The position numbers and the translations under genes were made by a program. This document shows, piece after piece, positions 7,801 through 32,671 of a DNA stretch of 64,000 nucleotides. Numbering within the stretch: the stretch's first letter is position 1; each line of letters begins with the position of its first letter. Below the pieces are notes generated by a model. The model ran no database searches and was not told where the DNA came from. It was given only the letters and a program-made list of their open reading frames with translations. The stretch covers positions 25,483 to 89,482 of the forward strand of contig JBBABB010000002.1 in the NCBI GenBank assembly GCA_041657885.1, written 5' to 3'. Source of the stretch: Minisyncoccota bacterium. Lineage in GTDB: Bacteria; Patescibacteriota; Minisyncoccia; Phycocordibacterales; UBA9973.

Positions 7801-7826
7801 AAAATATAGGTGTGGGGATTTATCCA
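7801..7826. repeat. Solo P-family TIR (AAAATATAGGTGTGGGGATTTATCC). It contains a perfect DnaA-box-like nonamer TTATCCACA.
   Basis: Identical to the right TIR at 7473-7497. Confidence 0.7.
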
Positions 7827-12121: not shown

Positions 12122-12171
12122 ACCCCCACACCTACTTTGGGATTCAATTATCAAAGTAGGTGTGGGGATGG
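12122..12171. repeat. Short P-family hairpin (ACCCCCACACCTACTTTG ... CAAAGTAGGTGTGGGGAT) in the divergent promoter / 5' leader region of nusA.
   Basis: A 17-bp inverted repeat with the same CCCCACACCTA core as the other P elements. Confidence 0.75.
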
Positions 12172-12209
12172 AAATTTTTATATTTCGCTCGGTTCCATTA
12201 AAAATTACC

Positions 12210-13388
12210 ATGTTAGATTTAAAAACAATGAGGTCTGCCCTAGAACAACTTGAGGTTGAAAGAAAAATTCCTCGAGAAAAAATAATTGATGCAATAGAGC
12301 AAGCTCTCGCCGCTGCCTATAAAAAAGATTACGGCAAAAAAGGTCAAATTATCAGAGCAAAGATTGATATAGAAACTGGGAAAATGGAATTTTACCAGAT
12401 TAAAATAGCTGTTGATGATACTTTAGTTAGAATGACCAGTGAAGATGATGAGGAAGAAATTGCTGAAGATGATGAAAGAGTGCGTTTTAACGAAGAACAT
12501 CATATCTTAATAGAAGATGCTAAAAAAATAAAAAATGATGCCATCCCAGGCGAAGAATTAATATTCCCTCTTGAGAATAAAGAGGATTATGGGCGTATCG
12601 CTGCGCAAACAGCCAAGCAAGTCATAATCCAAAAAATCCGCGAAGCAGAGAGAGGTGCAATAATAGAAGAATACGGAACAAAAGAAGGAGAAATAATAAA
12701 CGGCTTCGTTTCAAAAGTAGAAAGAGGAATTGTTTATATTGATTTCAATCGCGCCACTGGAATAATTCTTCCAGAAGAACAAATCCCCGGTGAATTCTAT
12801 AAACGCGGAGAAAGAATTCGCGCATATCTTTACCAAGTAGAAGAAACTCCACGCGGAGTAAATCTTAAACTCTCACGTACTCATCCACAACTTATTGAGG
12901 GATTGTTCGCTATGGAAGCGCCAGAAATAGCTTCGGGAGTTGTTGAAATTAAAGCAATCGCGCGTGAAGCTGGGAGTCGTTCCAAGATTGCTGTATTCTC
13001 AAATGATGAACATGTGGACCCAGTTGGCTCTTGTGTCGGGCAAAAAGGGGTTAGAGTAACTACAGTTATGAGTGAATTAAACGGTGAAAAAATAGATATT
13101 ATTCCTTGGTCTCCTGACGCAGGAACATATATCTCAAGTGCAATTTCTCCAGCAAATGTCTTAAATATTGAAGTAAATGAAGCGGAACATAAGGCAACAG
13201 TGGAAGTTGCAAATGACCAACTCTCTCTTGCTATCGGTAAAGGAGGACAAAATGTTCGTCTTGCTGCAAAACTTACTGGATGGAGAATAGATATAAAGGG
13301 CCTTGAAGAAAATGGCAACCAAATTAAAGAAAATGTAGAAAGTGATGATATACTAGATGACGGTATTGTCGATGACGGTACGAATTAA
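12210..13388 (+). CDS. nusA: Transcription termination/antitermination factor NusA.
   Basis: N-terminus MLDLKTMRSALEQLEVERKIPREKIIDAIEQAL, an S1 domain and KH repeats (GQKGVRV ... AIGKGGQNVRLAAKLTGWRIDI). The ORF track starts at 12162. The ATG at 12210 is the likelier start. Confidence 0.9.
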   Translation: MLDLKTMRSALEQLEVERKIPREKIIDAIEQALAAAYKKDYGKKGQIIRAKIDIETGKMEFYQIKIAVDDTLVRMTSEDDEEEIAEDDERVRFNEEHHILIEDAKKIKNDAIPGEELIFPLENKEDYGRIAAQTAKQVIIQKIREAERGAIIEEYGTKEGEIINGFVSKVERGIVYIDFNRATGIILPEEQIPGEFYKRGERIRAYLYQVEETPRGVNLKLSRTHPQLIEGLFAMEAPEIASGVVEIKAIAREAGSRSKIAVFSNDEHVDPVGSCVGQKGVRVTTVMSELNGEKIDIIPWSPDAGTYISSAISPANVLNIEVNEAEHKATVEVANDQLSLAIGKGGQNVRLAAKLTGWRIDIKGLEENGNQIKENVESDDILDDGIVDDGTN

Positions 13389-13464: not shown

Positions 13465-15495
13465 ATGAATCCATTTATAATATTTGCACTTGTTTCTTCA
13501 GTAGTCGCAATAGTTTACGGTTTGTTTTTAATTAGAGTTGTTATGAGTAAAGGTGCTGGCGATGAAAAAATGAAAGCCATCGCACTTGCTATTCAGCAAG
13601 GAGCAAAAGCATATTTGAATCGTCAATATAAAACAATTGGCGTTATCGCGGTCGTTCTATTTTTAATAATTGGTTTTGTCCCAATGCTTGGATGGATGAT
13701 GGCTGTTAGTTTCCTAGTTGGAGCAATTCTTTCGGCTCTTGCCGGATATATCGGAATGAATGTTTCCGTTCGGGCAAATGTCCGCACCACAGAAGAAGCA
13801 AAAAAAGGATTAAAAGAAGCCCTCGGTCTTGCTTTCAAAGGAGGCAGTGTCACTGGACTTCTTGTTGTTGGTCTTGCTCTTTTAGGAGTTACAGTATTTT
13901 ATTTAATCGCAACTCATTTTGTCGGCGCTGGTGCAGTCAGGTCACTCGTCGGACTTTCTTTCGGAGCAAGTTTGATTTCAGTTTTCGCTCGCTTGGGTGG
14001 TGGAATCTTTACAAAAGCTGCTGATGTCGGGGCAGACCTCGTTGGAAAAGTTGAAGCTGGAATCCCAGAAGATGACCCTAGAAATCCCGCAGTTATTGCC
14101 GACAACGTCGGAGATAATGTTGGTGACTGTGCAGGTATGGCGGCGGATTTATTTGAAACTTATGCTGTGACATCTGTTGCAACTATGCTTTTGGGCTCTC
14201 TGGTATTTTCTGGATTTGATAATGCCATAATTTACCCTCTCGCTATCGGCGGAGTTTCAATTATTTCTACAATTATCGGAACATGGTTCGTTCGTCTTGG
14301 AAAAAAGAAAAACATAATGGGGGCTTTGTATAAAGGACTTGCTATTTCTGCAATTCTTTCTGCAATTGGTTTCTACCCGATTACAAAATGGCTAATGTCA
14401 GCGCAAACTACTTACTCAGTTGGCAATCTATATATGAGTGCTCTCGTCGGAATAATCGTCACGGTTCTTATCATTGTCATCACAGAATATTACACTTCAA
14501 CAAAATATAATCCGGTAAAATCTATCGCAAAAGCGTCCCTTTCAGGACACGGCACAAACGTAATTCAGGGCTTAGCAATCTCAATGAAGTCCACAGCTCT
14601 TCCACTTCTTTCTATTGTCGCGGGAATTTTAGCTTCATATTATTTCGGAGAACTATATGGTATTGCAATCGCTGCAATGTCGATGCTTTCTCTCACTGGT
14701 ATCATTGTCGCCATCGATTCATTCGGACCTATTACAGATAACGCCGGTGGTATTGCTGAAATGGCAGGATTACCTGATAGTGTTCGTGCCGTTACAGACC
14801 CACTTGATGCTGTTGGCAACACAACAAAGGCGGTTACAAAAGGTTACGCTATTGGTTCCGCCGGACTCGCTGCACTCGTCCTCTTCTCATCTTATACACA
14901 AGAATTCGCAGACCTAGGACACAAATTAAATTTTGACCTCGGCAATCCTCTCGTTATCGCTGGACTTTTGCTCGGTGGATTGCTTCCTTATTATTTCGGA
15001 GCTCTTTGTATGGAAGCTGTTGGTAAAGCCGCAGGAAAAGTTGTGGAAGAAGTTCGCCGACAATTCCGCGATATCAAAGGTATTATGACAGGCGAAGGCA
15101 AACCTGACTATGCAACTTGCGTAGATATCGTCACAACTGGTGCCATTAAACAAATGATTCTTCCAGCATTAATCCCAGTTCTTGCTCCAATACTTGTTGG
15201 GTTCATACTTGGCCCTGAAGCACTCGGTGGACTTCTCGTTGGATCAATCGTGACTGGAATATTCCTCGCCATCTCAATGACCTCGGGTGGAGGCGCATGG
15301 GACAATGCCAAGAAATATATTGAACTTGGAAATCATGGCGGTAAAGGAAGTGATGCACACAAGGCAGCCGTTACCGGAGACACAGTTGGCGACCCTTACA
15401 AAGACACAGCGGGGCCTGCTATCAATCCAATGATAAAAATCTTAAACATCATCGCCTTGATTCTTGTGCCTATCTTGGTGGCAATTTGGTTTTAA
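13465..15495 (+). CDS. hppA: Membrane-bound H+-translocating pyrophosphatase, K+-independent type (GNTTKA).
   Basis: Multi-TM protein with [12 protein letters not shown], the DNVGDNVGD motif and [18 protein letters not shown]. Confidence 0.93.
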
Positions 15496-15519: not shown

Positions 15520-15548
15520 TTGACTATGTCTTTATATAAAGATATACT
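15520..15548 (+). promoter_or_regulatory. Near-consensus sigma70-like promoter TTGACT-17-TATACT.
   Basis: TTGACT at 15520-15525, a 17-nt spacer, TATACT at 15543-15548. Confidence 0.55.
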
Positions 15549-15596
15549 CTAAGAGTCTAATGGTTTATCCATAAACTGTTAGGGTATTACATCCAA

Positions 15597-15630
15597 GGGT
15601 AGCCCTCCGCGAGGAGGGTTACTTTTATTT
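15597..15630 (+). terminator. Intrinsic terminator: GC hairpin CCCTCC-GCGA-GGAGGG followed by a T-run.
   Basis: A perfect 6-bp GC stem followed by TTACTTTTATTT. Confidence 0.6.
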
Positions 15631-15760
15631 CTGGTCTCTATATCGTAGGTCACGTCCCCATATATCATTTTCAATTTAAATACTAAAAATATATTAATTT
15701 CTAAGGTACCAAAATGGATACTTAAAGATTTTTGACAAAAGTGCTTCATCCATATAAGAT

Positions 15761-16903
15761 ATGGATACTATGAAAACAACAATAAAAAAATTAGAAAAAA
15801 GCGAAATAGAAATAGTGGGCTCTATAGAAGTCGCTGAATTTGAGAAATATGAGGGCAAAGCGCTCGAAAGAATCGGCGAGCGCCTTGAACTTCCTGGTTT
15901 TCGAAAAGGGAAAGCCCCGAGTGGAATTGTGAAAGAAAACGTTCAAGAAATGGAACTATTGGAAGAAACGGCAGAGCTTGCATTGATGGATAATTATATG
16001 AAAATCTTGGAAGAGAATAAGATAGATGCTATCGGTCGTCCACAAATCGCAATTACAAAAATCGGAAAGGGTTCTGACCTAGAATTCAAAATCGTCACTG
16101 CTGTTCTTCCAGAAATGAAACTTCCTGATTATAAAAAAATTGCAAAAGAACAAAGTGGAAAAGAGGACAACAAGCGAGAAATTATTGTTGATGAAAAAGA
16201 TGTAGAAAAAGTAATTCTTGACCTTCGCAAAATGCGAGCTGAGCAGGCTCGTGGTAGTAATCATGTTGGCCATGAGAACATGACAGAAGAACCTGCCCGC
16301 CCTCACGATCATTCGGGAGCAGGCGGGGAACATGCAAAAGCCCATGCTGAATCTGCCTCATCGGCAGATAAAATTCCAGAAAGTGAATACCCTATTTTTG
16401 ATGATGCATTCGCAAAAACTTTTGGTGACTTCAAAGATGCTGGGGCATTCAAAGAAAAAATTCGCAGTAATATAAAAATAGAAAAGGAAACCGAGCAGAA
16501 AGACAAACTGCGCCTTGTGATAGTGGAAGAGCTAGTGAAACTAACCGAAGGAGAAATTCCTGAGATTTTAATAGAAAGTGAGATAGATAAAATAATGTAT
16601 CGGCTAGAAGCAGACATCACAAATGCTGGATTAAAACTAGAAGATTATTTAAAACAAATAAATAAAACCGATGCGGATTTGAGAAAAGAATGGCGAGCAG
16701 ACGCAGAGAAACGCGCGAAACTTCAAATGATAATCCATACAATCTCTGAAAAAGAAAATCTAAAACCAACCGAAGAAGAAATTGTAAAAGACGTTACACA
16801 AATCACAACTATGTACAAAGATGCCGACCCCACTCGTGCTCGTTCGTACGTAGAACAAATGTTAGAAAATGAGAAGGTGTTTAAGTTTTTAGAAACACAA
16901 TAA
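15761..16903 (+). CDS. tig: Trigger factor.
   Basis: N-terminal PGFRKGKAP signature. Carries an in-frame GC-rich insertion encoding [13 protein letters not shown] at 16291-16331. Confidence 0.88.
16291..16331. repeat. GC-rich hairpin element, family D (CCTGCCCGCCCTCAC..ATTCGGGAGCAGGCGGGGA), in-frame inside tig.
   Basis: A near-identical copy sits at 44398-44441 in the helicase C-terminus. Both encode ARPH..SGAGGE. Confidence 0.75.
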
Positions 16904-16944: not shown

Positions 16945-17535
16945 ATGCTTATACCAACAGTTATAGAAAAATCACAATTCGGCGAAAGAGCTTATGATAT
17001 ATACTCTCGCCTTTTAAACGAACGCATTATTTTCCTTGGTGGTCCAATAGACGACCACGTCGCTAATTTAATTATCGCTCAGCTTCTTTATTTGGACCAT
17101 ACCGACCCAAAAAAAGATATTTCACTTTATATCAACTCCCCTGGCGGTTCAGTTACAGCTGGGCTTGCAATTATAGACACAATGAATTTTGTAAAAAGTG
17201 ATGTCTCCACAATTTGCGTCGGCATAGCTGCATCAATGGGAGCACTTATTCTTTCATCGGGACAAAAAGGCAAAAGATTTTCTCTCCCAAATTCAGAAGT
17301 TATGATTCACCAAGTTATGGGAGGCACCGAAGGCCAAGCAAGTGATATTGCAATCAATGCAAAACACATCCTTCGCACAAAAGATACTTTGAATAAAATT
17401 CTTGCCCAAAATACAAATAAAAAAATTGACCAAGTTGATAAAGATTCCGACCGCGACTACTGGATGACCGCTGATGAAGCAAAGAAATACAACATCGTCG
17501 ACGACATTATCACAAAACAAAAAGCTGGAAAATAA
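16945..17535 (+). CDS. clpP: ATP-dependent Clp protease proteolytic subunit.
   Basis: GIAASMGA with the active-site Ser, and the MIHQ His. Position is conserved immediately after tig. Confidence 0.95.
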
Positions 17536-17627: not shown

Positions 17628-18704
17628 ATGCTACAATTAGTGCAACAAATGATTAAATTAACAGAAAGACAAAAAAAAATATTAGGATTTATAACAGAAA
17701 ATACCCAAATCGGTATCTCAGAAATTCTTGAGTTTATAAACAAAAATGAGTTAGAAATTACTCGTTTTTCTATTATCCGTGATTTAAATATACTTATTGA
17801 GAATAACCTAGTAAAAAAAGTGGGTGGTGGCCGTTCTACAAAATATACACCAAAGGAAAATGATACTCTCCATAAATATATTGATATTGATGATTATTTC
17901 AAAAAACCACAAGATGAGAGGGTTCTTATCTCAAAAAACTTTGAATTTAACATTTTTGAAAAAATAAATAATTTATTTACAAAAGAACAACTAGAAAAAA
18001 TAAACGTTCTTAACAATAAATTTAGAGAAAATATAAATAAAATTTCTCCGACCATAAAAAAACTAGAAATGGAGAGATTTATCATAGAATTATCTTGGAA
18101 ATCATCGCAAATAGAAGGAAATACTTACTCGCTGCTGGATACAGAATATTTAATCAAAAATAAAATTGAAGCTGAAGGACATAAAAAAGAAGAAGCCATT
18201 ATGATTTTGAATCATAAAATTACTTTAGATTTTATAAATAAAAATACTTCTTATTTCAAATCAATATCTATAAAAAAAATAGAGGAGCTACATAAACTTA
18301 TAACGGAAGGATTAGGAGTCAATCATGGAATTAGAAAATCTCCAGTCGGGATTACGGGGACAAATTATATTCCGCTTGATAATGAATATCAGATAAAAGA
18401 AGCTATAAAAAAAATGACTGAGAGAATAAACAAAGAAGTAGATCCAATTATAAAAGCATTCCTATCTTTATCTATTATTTCTTATATACAACCATTTGAA
18501 GACGGAAATAAGAGAACAGCGCGACTACTCGCAAATGCGATACTTATCGCTCACAATTACTGCCCACTATCATACAGAAGCGTCAAAGAGGTTGATTATA
18601 AAAAAGCAATTTTAGTGTTTTATGAGTCTCACAATCTTGATCCACTAAAAAGAATGTTTGTTGAGCAATTTGAATTCGCTATTAAAAATTATTTTAGAAA
18701 ATAA
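17628..18704 (+). CDS. Fic/Doc-family protein with an N-terminal wHTH. Its core motif is the non-canonical QPFEDGNKRTAR.
   Basis: Fic fold motif .PF.DGN.R..R is present, but the catalytic His is Gln and the second Gly is Lys, which is Doc-like. wHTH: LTERQKKILGFITENTQIGISEILEFI. Confidence 0.75.
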   Translation: MLQLVQQMIKLTERQKKILGFITENTQIGISEILEFINKNELEITRFSIIRDLNILIENNLVKKVGGGRSTKYTPKENDTLHKYIDIDDYFKKPQDERVLISKNFEFNIFEKINNLFTKEQLEKINVLNNKFRENINKISPTIKKLEMERFIIELSWKSSQIEGNTYSLLDTEYLIKNKIEAEGHKKEEAIMILNHKITLDFINKNTSYFKSISIKKIEELHKLITEGLGVNHGIRKSPVGITGTNYIPLDNEYQIKEAIKKMTERINKEVDPIIKAFLSLSIISYIQPFEDGNKRTARLLANAILIAHNYCPLSYRSVKEVDYKKAILVFYESHNLDPLKRMFVEQFEFAIKNYFRK

Positions 18705-22800: not shown

Positions 22801-23217
22801 CTACAATATTATATTATCCACAACCTTTACTCTCGCTTTTCTGTTGTCCAAATCTAGATAGACCACCAAAAGGTCAAATTGCCAATCAACATACCCCAAT
22901 CTTTTGCTTATAAGATAGGTCTCTACTACCCTTCTCAACCTTCTCATTTTCATTGGATGCATATTTTCCTCTGACCGTCCTGCACCATTCTCCAAAACTT
23001 CTTTTTGTGGATAAACATAATCTAAATTTGAAACACTTTTTGATTTAACTTCAATAAAATATCTTTTATCATTTTTTTGAGCAATAATATCAATTTCTCC
23101 CCATTTCTTTGTATAATTTCTTTCTAATATAGAAAAGCCATGTTTAATGAGAAACTTGCAGGCTACTCCTTCACCCAACTCACCTATTTTTTGAGAATTT
23201 GAGGTAAAATTTTTCAT
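22801..23217 (-). CDS. yraN: YraN-family (UPF0102) endonuclease.
   Basis: GELGEGVACKFLIKHGFSILERN ... GEIDIIAQKNDKRYFIEVKSK. Confidence 0.85.
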   Translation of the reverse strand: MKNFTSNSQKIGELGEGVACKFLIKHGFSILERNYTKKWGEIDIIAQKNDKRYFIEVKSKSVSNLDYVYPQKEVLENGAGRSEENMHPMKMRRLRRVVETYLISKRLGYVDWQFDLLVVYLDLDNRKARVKVVDNIIL

Positions 23218-23501
23218 ATTACATTTAAAATCGTTTCACGTGAAACTATATTAATATAATGGACACAAAAACAACAAAACCAAAATGGTCTTTATAAAAA
23301 TATCTTTATTTATCAAGGTATTATTGTCAAAACTTCAATTATTTGTCTCTCATAAAAATGACCTCAGTTGTGTCTTTTATAAACAATACACACATAGTTA
23401 TCCACAGAAGTCTTAATTTTAAAGTGTTCTGGATGTGGATAAAGGACTAATAAAGGTCAAACCGTAAATTAATTTTTCAAGTATAAAAAGACTTCTTTTT
23501 G

Positions 23502-32028: not shown

Positions 32029-32532
32029 ATGATAATAAAACACAAGGAGCAGAGAGTAGGAGTTTTTATAGATACCTCAAATCTATATCATAGTGCGAAA
32101 AATTTATATAAGAGAAAAGTAAACTTTGGAGCAGTTTTAAAAGACGCAGTAGCAGGGCGTAAACTTGTCCGCGCAATTGCATATGTTATAACAAGTGAAG
32201 GAGGTGAAGAAAAGAATTTTTTTGAAGCATTGACAAAACTTGGGATTGAAACAAAAACAAAAGAATTACAAATATTTTCAGGGGGAGTAAAAAAGGGTGA
32301 CTGGGATGTCGGACTTGCGGTTGATGTGATGAAAATGGCACCAAAGCTTGACGCTGTAATTTTAGTAGCTGGTGATGGGGACTTTGTCCCACTGGTAGAA
32401 TATTTACAAAGTACTTCAGGAGTTCAAGTAGAAGTCGTATCTTTTGGAAAGAGCGCATCTATGAAATTAAAAGAACAAGCCGATGATTTCCTAGACCTAT
32501 CAAACAATTACCGCAAATATTTAATTTACTAA
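32029..32532 (+). CDS. NYN-domain (LabA-like) protein, a putative RNase, inserted between rpsO and pnp.
   Basis: VFIDTSNLYHSAKNL, DWDVGLAVDVM, LVAGDGDFVPLV. Confidence 0.8.
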   Translation: MIIKHKEQRVGVFIDTSNLYHSAKNLYKRKVNFGAVLKDAVAGRKLVRAIAYVITSEGGEEKNFFEALTKLGIETKTKELQIFSGGVKKGDWDVGLAVDVMKMAPKLDAVILVAGDGDFVPLVEYLQSTSGVQVEVVSFGKSASMKLKEQADDFLDLSNNYRKYLIY

Positions 32533-32671
32533 ACACAAAAAACACTCTTTATTAAAAGAGTGTTTTTTGCTATAATGGAATCATTAATAATTAATTTGTT
32601 AATCTCCGGACAGTTAGAGTTGAAGCCACAAATAGGTTTCAAAACTAGGGTCTGGGGACTAGCTAAAATAT

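Follow-up and report, generated by a model that had tools for sequence, protein, structure and literature searches.

Type I toxin-antitoxin pairs with overlapping 3' ends, such as bsrG/SR4 and txpA/RatA of Bacillus subtilis, combine a toxin that is a small hydrophobic peptide with a small structured antisense RNA that is transcribed from a promoter to a terminator of its own, convergently to the gene that it controls, the 3' ends of the two meeting. In these pairs the RNA gene tends to outlive the loss of its partner. Type III systems (ToxIN, CptIN, TenpIN) consist of a ribonuclease and a dedicated structured RNA antitoxin; the two are cognate to each other, and the systems are linked to phage defense. 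The anticodon nucleases PrrC and RloC are latent RNases embedded in type I restriction-modification operons, and PrrC is held in check by the restriction-modification proteins, not by RNA; we know of no RNA partner of PrrC. The LabA-like NYN proteins (PF01936) are a very large family in which neither a nuclease function nor a regulator has yet been shown, and the NYN.COG1432 proteins are functionally unstudied (PMC5499597). HEC-09, an NYN protein embedded in defense loci, did not protect against the phages used in its test (bioRxiv 10.1101/2024.01.29.577857). Neither of these two papers describes an RNA partner. Here we describe a locus that resembles each of these systems in part, a very probable small-RNA gene whose relatives stand tail to tail with an NYN gene.

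A promoter-terminator module between hppA and tig

The DNA that we analyzed is a stretch of 64,000 nucleotides (the window), which is AT-rich (31 to 39% G+C) and which related loci place in a Paceibacteria/Nomurabacteria (CPR) genome. The gene order around the locus is nusA (12162-13388), hppA (13465-15495), tig (15761/15770-16903), clpP (16945-17535), a Fic gene, and rny, and a candidate sRNA module (15520-15630) sits inside the 265-nt spacer between hppA and tig. A preliminary description of this DNA had reported a near-consensus promoter, a terminator-like hairpin with a U-run, and a mini-ORF, and had read them either as a stand-alone sRNA gene or as a leader of tig. All three elements are present. 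The promoter, TTGACT-17-TATACT, spans 15520-15548; the CCCTCC-GCGA-GGAGGG hairpin lies at 15603-15618, as the top part of a 14-bp stem (15595-15626) that runs into the U-tract; and the mini-ORF ATG GTT TAT CCA TAA lies at 15560-15574, inside another hairpin (15556-15583). The features of the locus are as follows.

15520-15525, plus strand: -35 hexamer TTGACT of the sRNA promoter, which together with the -10 hexamer has 10 of 12 consensus matches
15543-15548, plus strand: -10 hexamer TATACT, after a 17-nt spacer
15555-15630, plus strand: predicted sRNA of ~76 nt, GUCUAAUGG...UUUUAUUU (family alignment, covariance model R2, fold z-score)
15556-15583, plus strand: hairpin 1, 12 bp with loop UCCA (folding and family covariation)
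15584-15594, plus strand: single-stranded linker GUAUUACAUCC, 11 nt, near-invariant in the family (alignment)
15595-15626, plus strand: hairpin 2, the intrinsic terminator stem, 14 bp with a GCGA (GNRA) loop
15623-15630, plus strand: U-tract UUUUAUUU of the terminator, which in intact cassettes holds the stop codon of the convergent NYN gene
15625-15693, minus strand: remnant of an NYN 3' end, ...IENDIWGRDLRYRDQK* (tblastn against intact NYN genes)

The hexamers are near consensus and have the 16- to 18-nt spacing of a sigma-70-type promoter, and at 15595-15630 a GC-rich stem-loop stands directly before a U-tract, as in an intrinsic terminator. Transcription would start at G15555 and end in the U-run. 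When the predicted RNA was folded at 78 to 83 nt and compared with shuffled sequences, it gave z-scores of -4.2 and -5.5, with none of 200 shuffles folding as well. The predicted folds consist of two independent hairpins, and no alternative antiterminator pairing was predicted in them. Motif scans yielded 8 promoter-like sites, compared to 5.1 +/- 2.3 expected, and 2 terminator-like sites, compared to 1.9 expected, neither of which is above chance. Since motif counts are at chance in such AT-rich DNA, the case for the module rests on comparison with other genomes.

Several other elements surround the module. The spacer of the sRNA promoter (15526-15542) contains an A/T-rich inverted repeat in the window (TCTTTAT-ATAAAGA), and such repeats often lie between the -35 and -10 hexamers of other copies (L036, L054, L081, L089, and L093; in L054 it reads ACTTTTTTT..AAAAAAAGT). 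They could be an operator or merely low-complexity sequence. The public ENA annotation places a 56-aa gene across the sRNA (15579-15749, minus strand), in a frame that differs from that of the NYN remnant and with no Pfam match on record; this ORF is probably spurious. Downstream, tig has its own promoter, TTGACA-17-TAAGAT (15732-15760), and about a dozen relatives have kept it. Translation of tig probably starts at the ATG at 15770 (MKTTIKK), only 9 nt after the -10 hexamer and with identical spacing in the closest relative, so the tig mRNA would be leaderless or nearly so. An 8-bp inverted repeat, ATCCATAT-AAG-ATATGGAT, overlaps the tig -10 hexamer in the window only.

Homologues of the RNA in other genomes

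Among 43 related genomes fetched via tig, only one contained the module, and this was the closest relative (locus L036). Homology between the window and L036 starts 3 nt upstream of the -35 hexamer. Both promoter hexamers are identical, and the spacer between them differs at 5 of 17 positions. The predicted transcribed part (~80 nt) is ~96% identical, compared to ~70% in the flanks, including the sequence beyond the terminator. Its three changes keep the structure: one is an extra U beside the loop of hairpin 1, one turns the GCGA loop into GCAA, and one replaces a G-U pair by G-C.

We scanned metagenome contigs with the 20-mer TAGGGTATTACATCCAAGGG, which retrieved 23 loci, and a first covariance model was built from the window and L036 sequences. 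All 23 of the loci gave full-length model matches, at 57 to 116 bits. Many of the loci come from the Hainich wells. The window copy itself matched model R2 over model positions 1 to 88 with 95.9 bits (E = 4e-22). Within the window, neither models R1 and R2 nor a 26-mer search allowing three mismatches found another copy. A comparison with Rfam 15 gave no match at the gathering threshold in the window, with sub-threshold noise only at the locus, and no consistent match at the RNA in seven homologous loci. No tRNA or tmRNA was found at the locus, and full-text literature searches found no published description of the RNA family or of an sRNA partner for NYN. Some candidate homologues were discarded: 11 viral-contig matches to a shorter 17-mer were put down to chance, as they had no model match at the matched site, and weak matches to a two-hairpin model in L006 and L017 were generic terminators.

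A convergent NYN gene accompanies the RNA

In most of the loci found through the RNA (RNA-anchored loci), a minus-strand ORF of 190 to 210 aa ends in the U-tract of the RNA. Its product was assigned an NYN domain (Pfam PF01936, E = 4e-21) and matched the PADLOC model "LabA-like NYN family nuclease." Neither sequence nor fold gave a relative other than the NYN protein of PDB entry 2QIP, which was also the sole significant structural match. The putatively catalytic acidic residues D15, D109, D115, D132, and D134 are invariant among the proteins, as is a KKELKR basic patch. The partner gene is predicted to encode an NYN ribonuclease. The two genes are arranged tail to tail, with the NYN stop codon inside the U-tract of the RNA's terminator. 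NYN is usually packed co-directionally in operons, where the RNA gene fills a gap of 120 to 180 nt before the next gene.

Searches that begin with the RNA are biased toward it, and we removed this bias by a restart anchored on the protein. The NYN protein had 2167 homologues at E <= 1e-10, the best 120 of which were all at least 68% identical and came from Parcubacteria, Yonath-, Moran-, and Nomurabacteria. We chose 10 NYN genes by protein similarity alone, from among these close homologues (all at least 68% identical), and all 10 carry the RNA on the opposite strand (73 to 97 bits), overlapping the NYN stop codon in every case. The RNA family is widespread in Patescibacteria (CPR). Counting both samples, an intact convergent NYN gene is present in 12 RNA-anchored loci and in 10 of 10 NYN-anchored loci. 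An intact NYN gene of this subfamily was found without the RNA in 0 of these 22 loci, a count that has a wide confidence interval, the NYN-anchored sample being small, and that includes an RNA-anchored sample blind to loss of the RNA.

A tblastn search with NYN against 50,697 phage records gave no match. More distant NYN genes were also considered. An alphaproteobacterial homologue in Sinorhizobium, located beside rpoZ and 33% identical, showed no convergent promoter or terminator. The window contains a second, distant NYN gene at 32029-32532 (167 aa, 28 to 31% identical to the sRNA-linked NYN), which is followed by a hairpin that resembles a bidirectional terminator, AAAAACACTCTTT-TAAT-AAAGAGTGTTTTT (within 32029-32567). 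Over 32029-32567 there was no match to the sRNA models and no minus-strand promoter. An extension of the RNA pairing to distant NYN genes is thus unsupported by both the Sinorhizobium homologue and the window paralogue.

Covariation, promoter position, and sequence constraint

Statistics on structure were computed from 29 sequence-distinct copies of the RNA. Covariation analysis across relatives had been proposed in the preliminary description as a check, and both helices covary: compensatory changes occur at 12 of 26 pairs (7 of 12 in hairpin 1 and 5 of 14 in hairpin 2), and 94.2% of cells are paired, a figure that rises to 97.8% in hairpin 2. For four of five covariation measures, the observed value was reached by none of 500 shuffles, and with the partner columns slid as a control, no more than 65% of cells were paired. 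At three places in the helices, all or almost all copies have a G-U pair, which on the NYN strand would be an A-C mismatch, so the structure belongs to the RNA strand rather than the NYN strand. Hairpin 1 contains such G-U pairs.

The promoter hexamers keep their positions in nearly all copies. The -10 hexamer (TAnnnT) ends at the same alignment column in 27 of the 29 and within 2 nt of it in the other two, and a -35 hexamer (TTGAC or TTGCT) lies 16 to 18 nt upstream across a spacer whose sequence is free to vary. Promoter scores are at least 9 of 12 in 23 of 29 copies, and every copy has a purine 7 nt after the -10 hexamer, followed by an invariant UCU.

Within the RNA, the top of hairpin 2 (CCCUCC/GGAGGG) is invariant across the family. 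Over 153 pairwise comparisons, the linker is 99% identical, compared to 79% for the RNA overall, and four-fold degenerate sites of the NYN genes are saturated, with an identity of 0.30 compared to 0.28 for random sequence. Because the linker and the RNA are conserved while these neighboring sites are random, the RNA is under purifying selection on both its sequence and its structure. The earlier proposal of a stand-alone promoter and terminator that produce an sRNA of ~75 nt is strongly backed by conservation, covariation, and promoter position. With its identity well supported, the window very probably holds a real, self-contained gene for a small RNA of ~76 nt from an undescribed family.

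Loss of NYN and cognate RNA/NYN subtypes

Only the end of the NYN gene is left in the window. The last ~22 codons (15628-15693, minus strand), which run up to the stop codon (15625-15627), are 64% identical to residues 169-190 of the L036 protein by tblastn, and an in-frame stop lies further up. The remaining ~170 NYN codons are deleted in the window, and the RNA gene is an intact orphan. Such loss has happened repeatedly: of 19 RNA-bearing loci that could be assessed, 7 have an inactivated NYN gene or none. Remnants persist in the window, L049, L061, and L053; L051 has a nonsense codon; and NYN is wholly absent from L045 and L065. For three of the losses, we found close relatives that retain NYN (L036 for the window, L046 for L045 and L049, and L052 for L065).

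A different pair occupies the same site in another relative. L023, at the same hppA-tig site, has a homologous promoter region, an NYN subtype that is 37% identical, and a different convergent sRNA. L025 resembles L023 in having its own NYN subtype and its own convergent sRNA upstream of tig, and the NYN subtypes of the two are distant ones (33 to 37% identity). Their sRNAs, each with a promoter and a terminator, lie at ~632-715 in L023 and ~38-122 in L025. They have fold z-scores of -4.2 and -4.7, and their sequence differs from that of the window family; a 5' ACGAY...RUCGUCCU hairpin is common to the two, and an AUUAC motif is found in both of them and in the window family. RNA and NYN thus look like cognate pairs that are swapped as a unit. 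Between hppA and the sRNA promoter, two relatives also carry a near-perfect 36-nt palindrome, GTGGAGYTAAAATYGCT..AGCRATTTTARCTCCAC, preceded by TTGACT (L036, 3143-3178; L023, 518-553), which is absent from the window.

Restriction-modification operons and other genomic settings

Of the 10 NYN-anchored loci, 7 are located within or next to genes for restriction-modification (of type I, III, IIG/ISP, or II), as are the RNA-anchored loci L062, L051, and L049:

L089: hsdM-hsdS-NYN-RNA-hsdR
L095: hsdM-NYN-RNA-x-hsdS
L098, and likewise the RNA-anchored L062: mod-NYN-RNA-res
L084 and L085: MmeI or type ISP enzymes directly upstream
L081: type ISP enzyme ~1.9 kb upstream; adjacent HNH gene
L093: MutH plus Dcm
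L051 and L049 (RNA-anchored): hsdS/hsdR and TdeIII, respectively

The cassette also occurs in housekeeping operons (glycolysis, ruv), which fits a selfish or regulatory module and is not specific to defense. Genes with a Fic domain lie within a few kilobases of the cassette in the window (17628-18704), L056, and L081; this proximity may be coincidental, or the two may both belong to a mobile or defense island.

DnaA boxes are a further feature of the window. The consensus TGTGGATAA (reverse complement TTATCCACA) occurs eight times, at 7820, 22814, 23006, 23398, 23434, 36746, 42562, and 45460, compared to about one expected, and none of 100 shuffles reached eight. Four of the boxes are clustered at 22814-23442 among tRNA genes and could indicate an origin or a region under DnaA control. 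The GTGGATA core, or a one-base variant of it, lies 2 to 8 nt upstream of the sRNA -35 hexamer in 13 of the 29 copies (L036, L054, L056, L067, L079, L081, L090, L093, and others); the window copy has no such core at its promoter.

Possible action of the RNA on NYN

We propose that the RNA would act as an antitoxin-like neutralizer or regulator of the NYN nuclease. Obligate convergence, cognate subtypes, asymmetric loss, and embedding among restriction-modification genes all fit an antitoxin-like RNA that neutralizes a ribonuclease. The invariant linker argues for recognition by sequence, for which the NYN protein is the simplest candidate, and the main route would accordingly be one in which this protein recognizes the linker and the stem top by their sequence, a logic like that of type III systems. 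The convergent geometry allows antisense action as well, so that an added route, with a logic like that of type I, could be the pairing of the RNA to read-through transcripts of the NYN operon that extend across its gene. An independent sRNA gene with a fixed NYN partner, acting as an antitoxin-like regulator and orphaned in the window, is in our judgment the best explanation as a whole and a reasonably likely one.

Some specific pairing targets were considered and dropped. One was pairing in trans between the linker and the start of NYN translation; the 5' regions of NYN genes are unrelated to each other. A 7-bp match to the M-D-V codons of the NYN coding region, the sole complementarity that recurred, was at chance level and came with no codon bias. 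By a hand estimate, the linker would match ~11 of 14 positions of the complement of the 16S rRNA 790 loop, which is chance for targets the size of an rRNA.

Two alternatives keep the RNA gene and its partner and differ in how one acts on the other. The RNA could work purely in cis, pairing with read-through transcripts of the NYN operon without any recognition by protein, and so trigger cleavage or block NYN or a downstream gene such as a restriction subunit. The converging genes, with the NYN stop codon in the RNA's U-tract, suit this idea; read-through is likely, as no U-run follows the shared hairpin on the NYN strand, and in several operons the RNA gene fills the 120- to 180-nt gap so completely that there is no room for another promoter. 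An antisense RNA needs no fixed sequence, however, and the near identity of the linker and the invariance of the stem top, despite saturated neutral sites, argue against pairing alone, as does the retention of an intact RNA after NYN loss in at least seven loci. We regard this mode as unlikely by itself. Obligate linkage, cognate subtypes, and a single-stranded linker that resembles a seed would also suit a positive partner, one that serves the NYN nuclease as cofactor, guide, or specific substrate and does not inhibit it. Yet a cofactor should decay with its enzyme, whereas RNA genes persist intact beside deleted or nonsense NYN genes, and no conserved target was found, the M-D-V complementarity being at chance; a positive role is thus improbable.

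The remaining alternatives deny the module its independence. It might be a terminator only, of hppA or in both directions, with hexamers that arose by chance in AT-rich DNA, and indeed such hexamers are not rarer than chance in the region. Since no other terminator lies between the hppA stop codon (15495) and the hairpin, the sRNA terminator probably also ends hppA transcription in this genome. The unit of promoter, hairpin, linker, and terminator recurs, however, at ~30 loci without hppA, with the -35 and -10 hexamers fixed in position and the spacer free; neither hairpin 1 nor the linker serves termination, and yet they covary or are invariant; and in L036 the unit lies 240 nt past hppA, after another hairpin. 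The preliminary description had named a simple hppA terminator as the outcome that would undo its sRNA, and with RNA and promoter occurring far from any hppA, that outcome is very improbable. Its other reading, a leader or attenuator of tig-clpP with the leader peptide MVYP, drew on the position upstream of tig and the four-codon ORF at 15560-15574. This reading did not survive comparison. An AUG occurs at that position in 3 of 29 family members, and in L036 frame and length differ; the next gene in the direction of the RNA is NYN, which runs the other way, and past the cassette the genes differ, being unrelated among the ~30 loci; a separate, conserved promoter of tig lies 100 nt downstream; and no antiterminator fold competes with the two hairpins. 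We give the tig leader practically no chance.

If the antitoxin-like regulator that we prefer is taken further, the cassette could represent a new RNA-protein class of toxin-antitoxin or abortive-infection system, with a single-copy, convergent, structured antitoxin that is read via an invariant 11-nt linker, and a module that is widespread in Patescibacteria and habitually placed between modification and restriction genes. This wider proposal is tentative, and we would not at present bet on it. Were it true, orphan RNA genes such as that of the window would be "anti-addiction" relics. Should the RNA neutralize the nuclease, the architecture would be a toxin-antitoxin or abortive-infection one outside the present types, and the repeated embedding in restriction-modification loci would point to a second-line RNase defense in ultra-small bacteria. 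Beyond this, the cassette gives the LabA-like NYN proteins (PF01936) a concrete and testable partner, and the very short list of regulatory RNAs known from the CPR/Patescibacteria gains a conserved, structured sRNA family. NYN candidates that are assayed without their flanking noncoding DNA may behave unexpectedly, and the missing RNA could explain it.

Comparison with known systems

The NYN cassette shares with the type I pairs bsrG/SR4 and txpA/RatA a small structured RNA that is convergent to its partner gene, 3' ends that meet, and survival of the RNA after partner loss. The type I 3'-overlap geometry is present, in that the NYN stop codon lies in the U-tract, and overlap of the transcripts hinges on read-through. 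The partners differ, as NYN is a soluble protein of 190 to 210 aa and type I toxins are small hydrophobic peptides. Moreover, the NYN-linked RNA lies wholly downstream of the stop codon and is under strong constraint on its primary sequence.

With type III systems, the cassette shares a ribonuclease gene (here a predicted one) and a dedicated structured RNA that is presumably neutralizing, as well as cognate pairing and a link to defense. The invariant linker and the cognate subtypes suggest that the RNA may bind and inhibit the NYN protein. Type III antitoxins are arrays of tandem repeats that precede the toxin gene in the same orientation; here the RNA is single-copy, with no tandem repeats found when we looked for them, and converges on the nuclease gene. 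The protein has an NYN/PIN-like fold instead of the ToxN/AbiQ fold, according to its Pfam assignment and the only structural match, 2QIP.

The position of a predicted RNase gene between modification or specificity genes and restriction genes (hsdS-NYN-RNA-hsdR and mod-NYN-RNA-res) recalls PrrC and RloC, although the fold of the NYN protein is different from that of PrrC. By Pfam family and fold, the protein resembles the LabA-like NYN proteins (NYN.COG1432; PDB 2QIP) and HEC-09; the match to HEC-09 is weak (E = 1e-4), and HEC-09 has an extra N-terminal domain. Given that features by which type I systems are defined, and likewise those of type III, are missing from the cassette, we describe it as a module that would work like them rather than as a member of either type.
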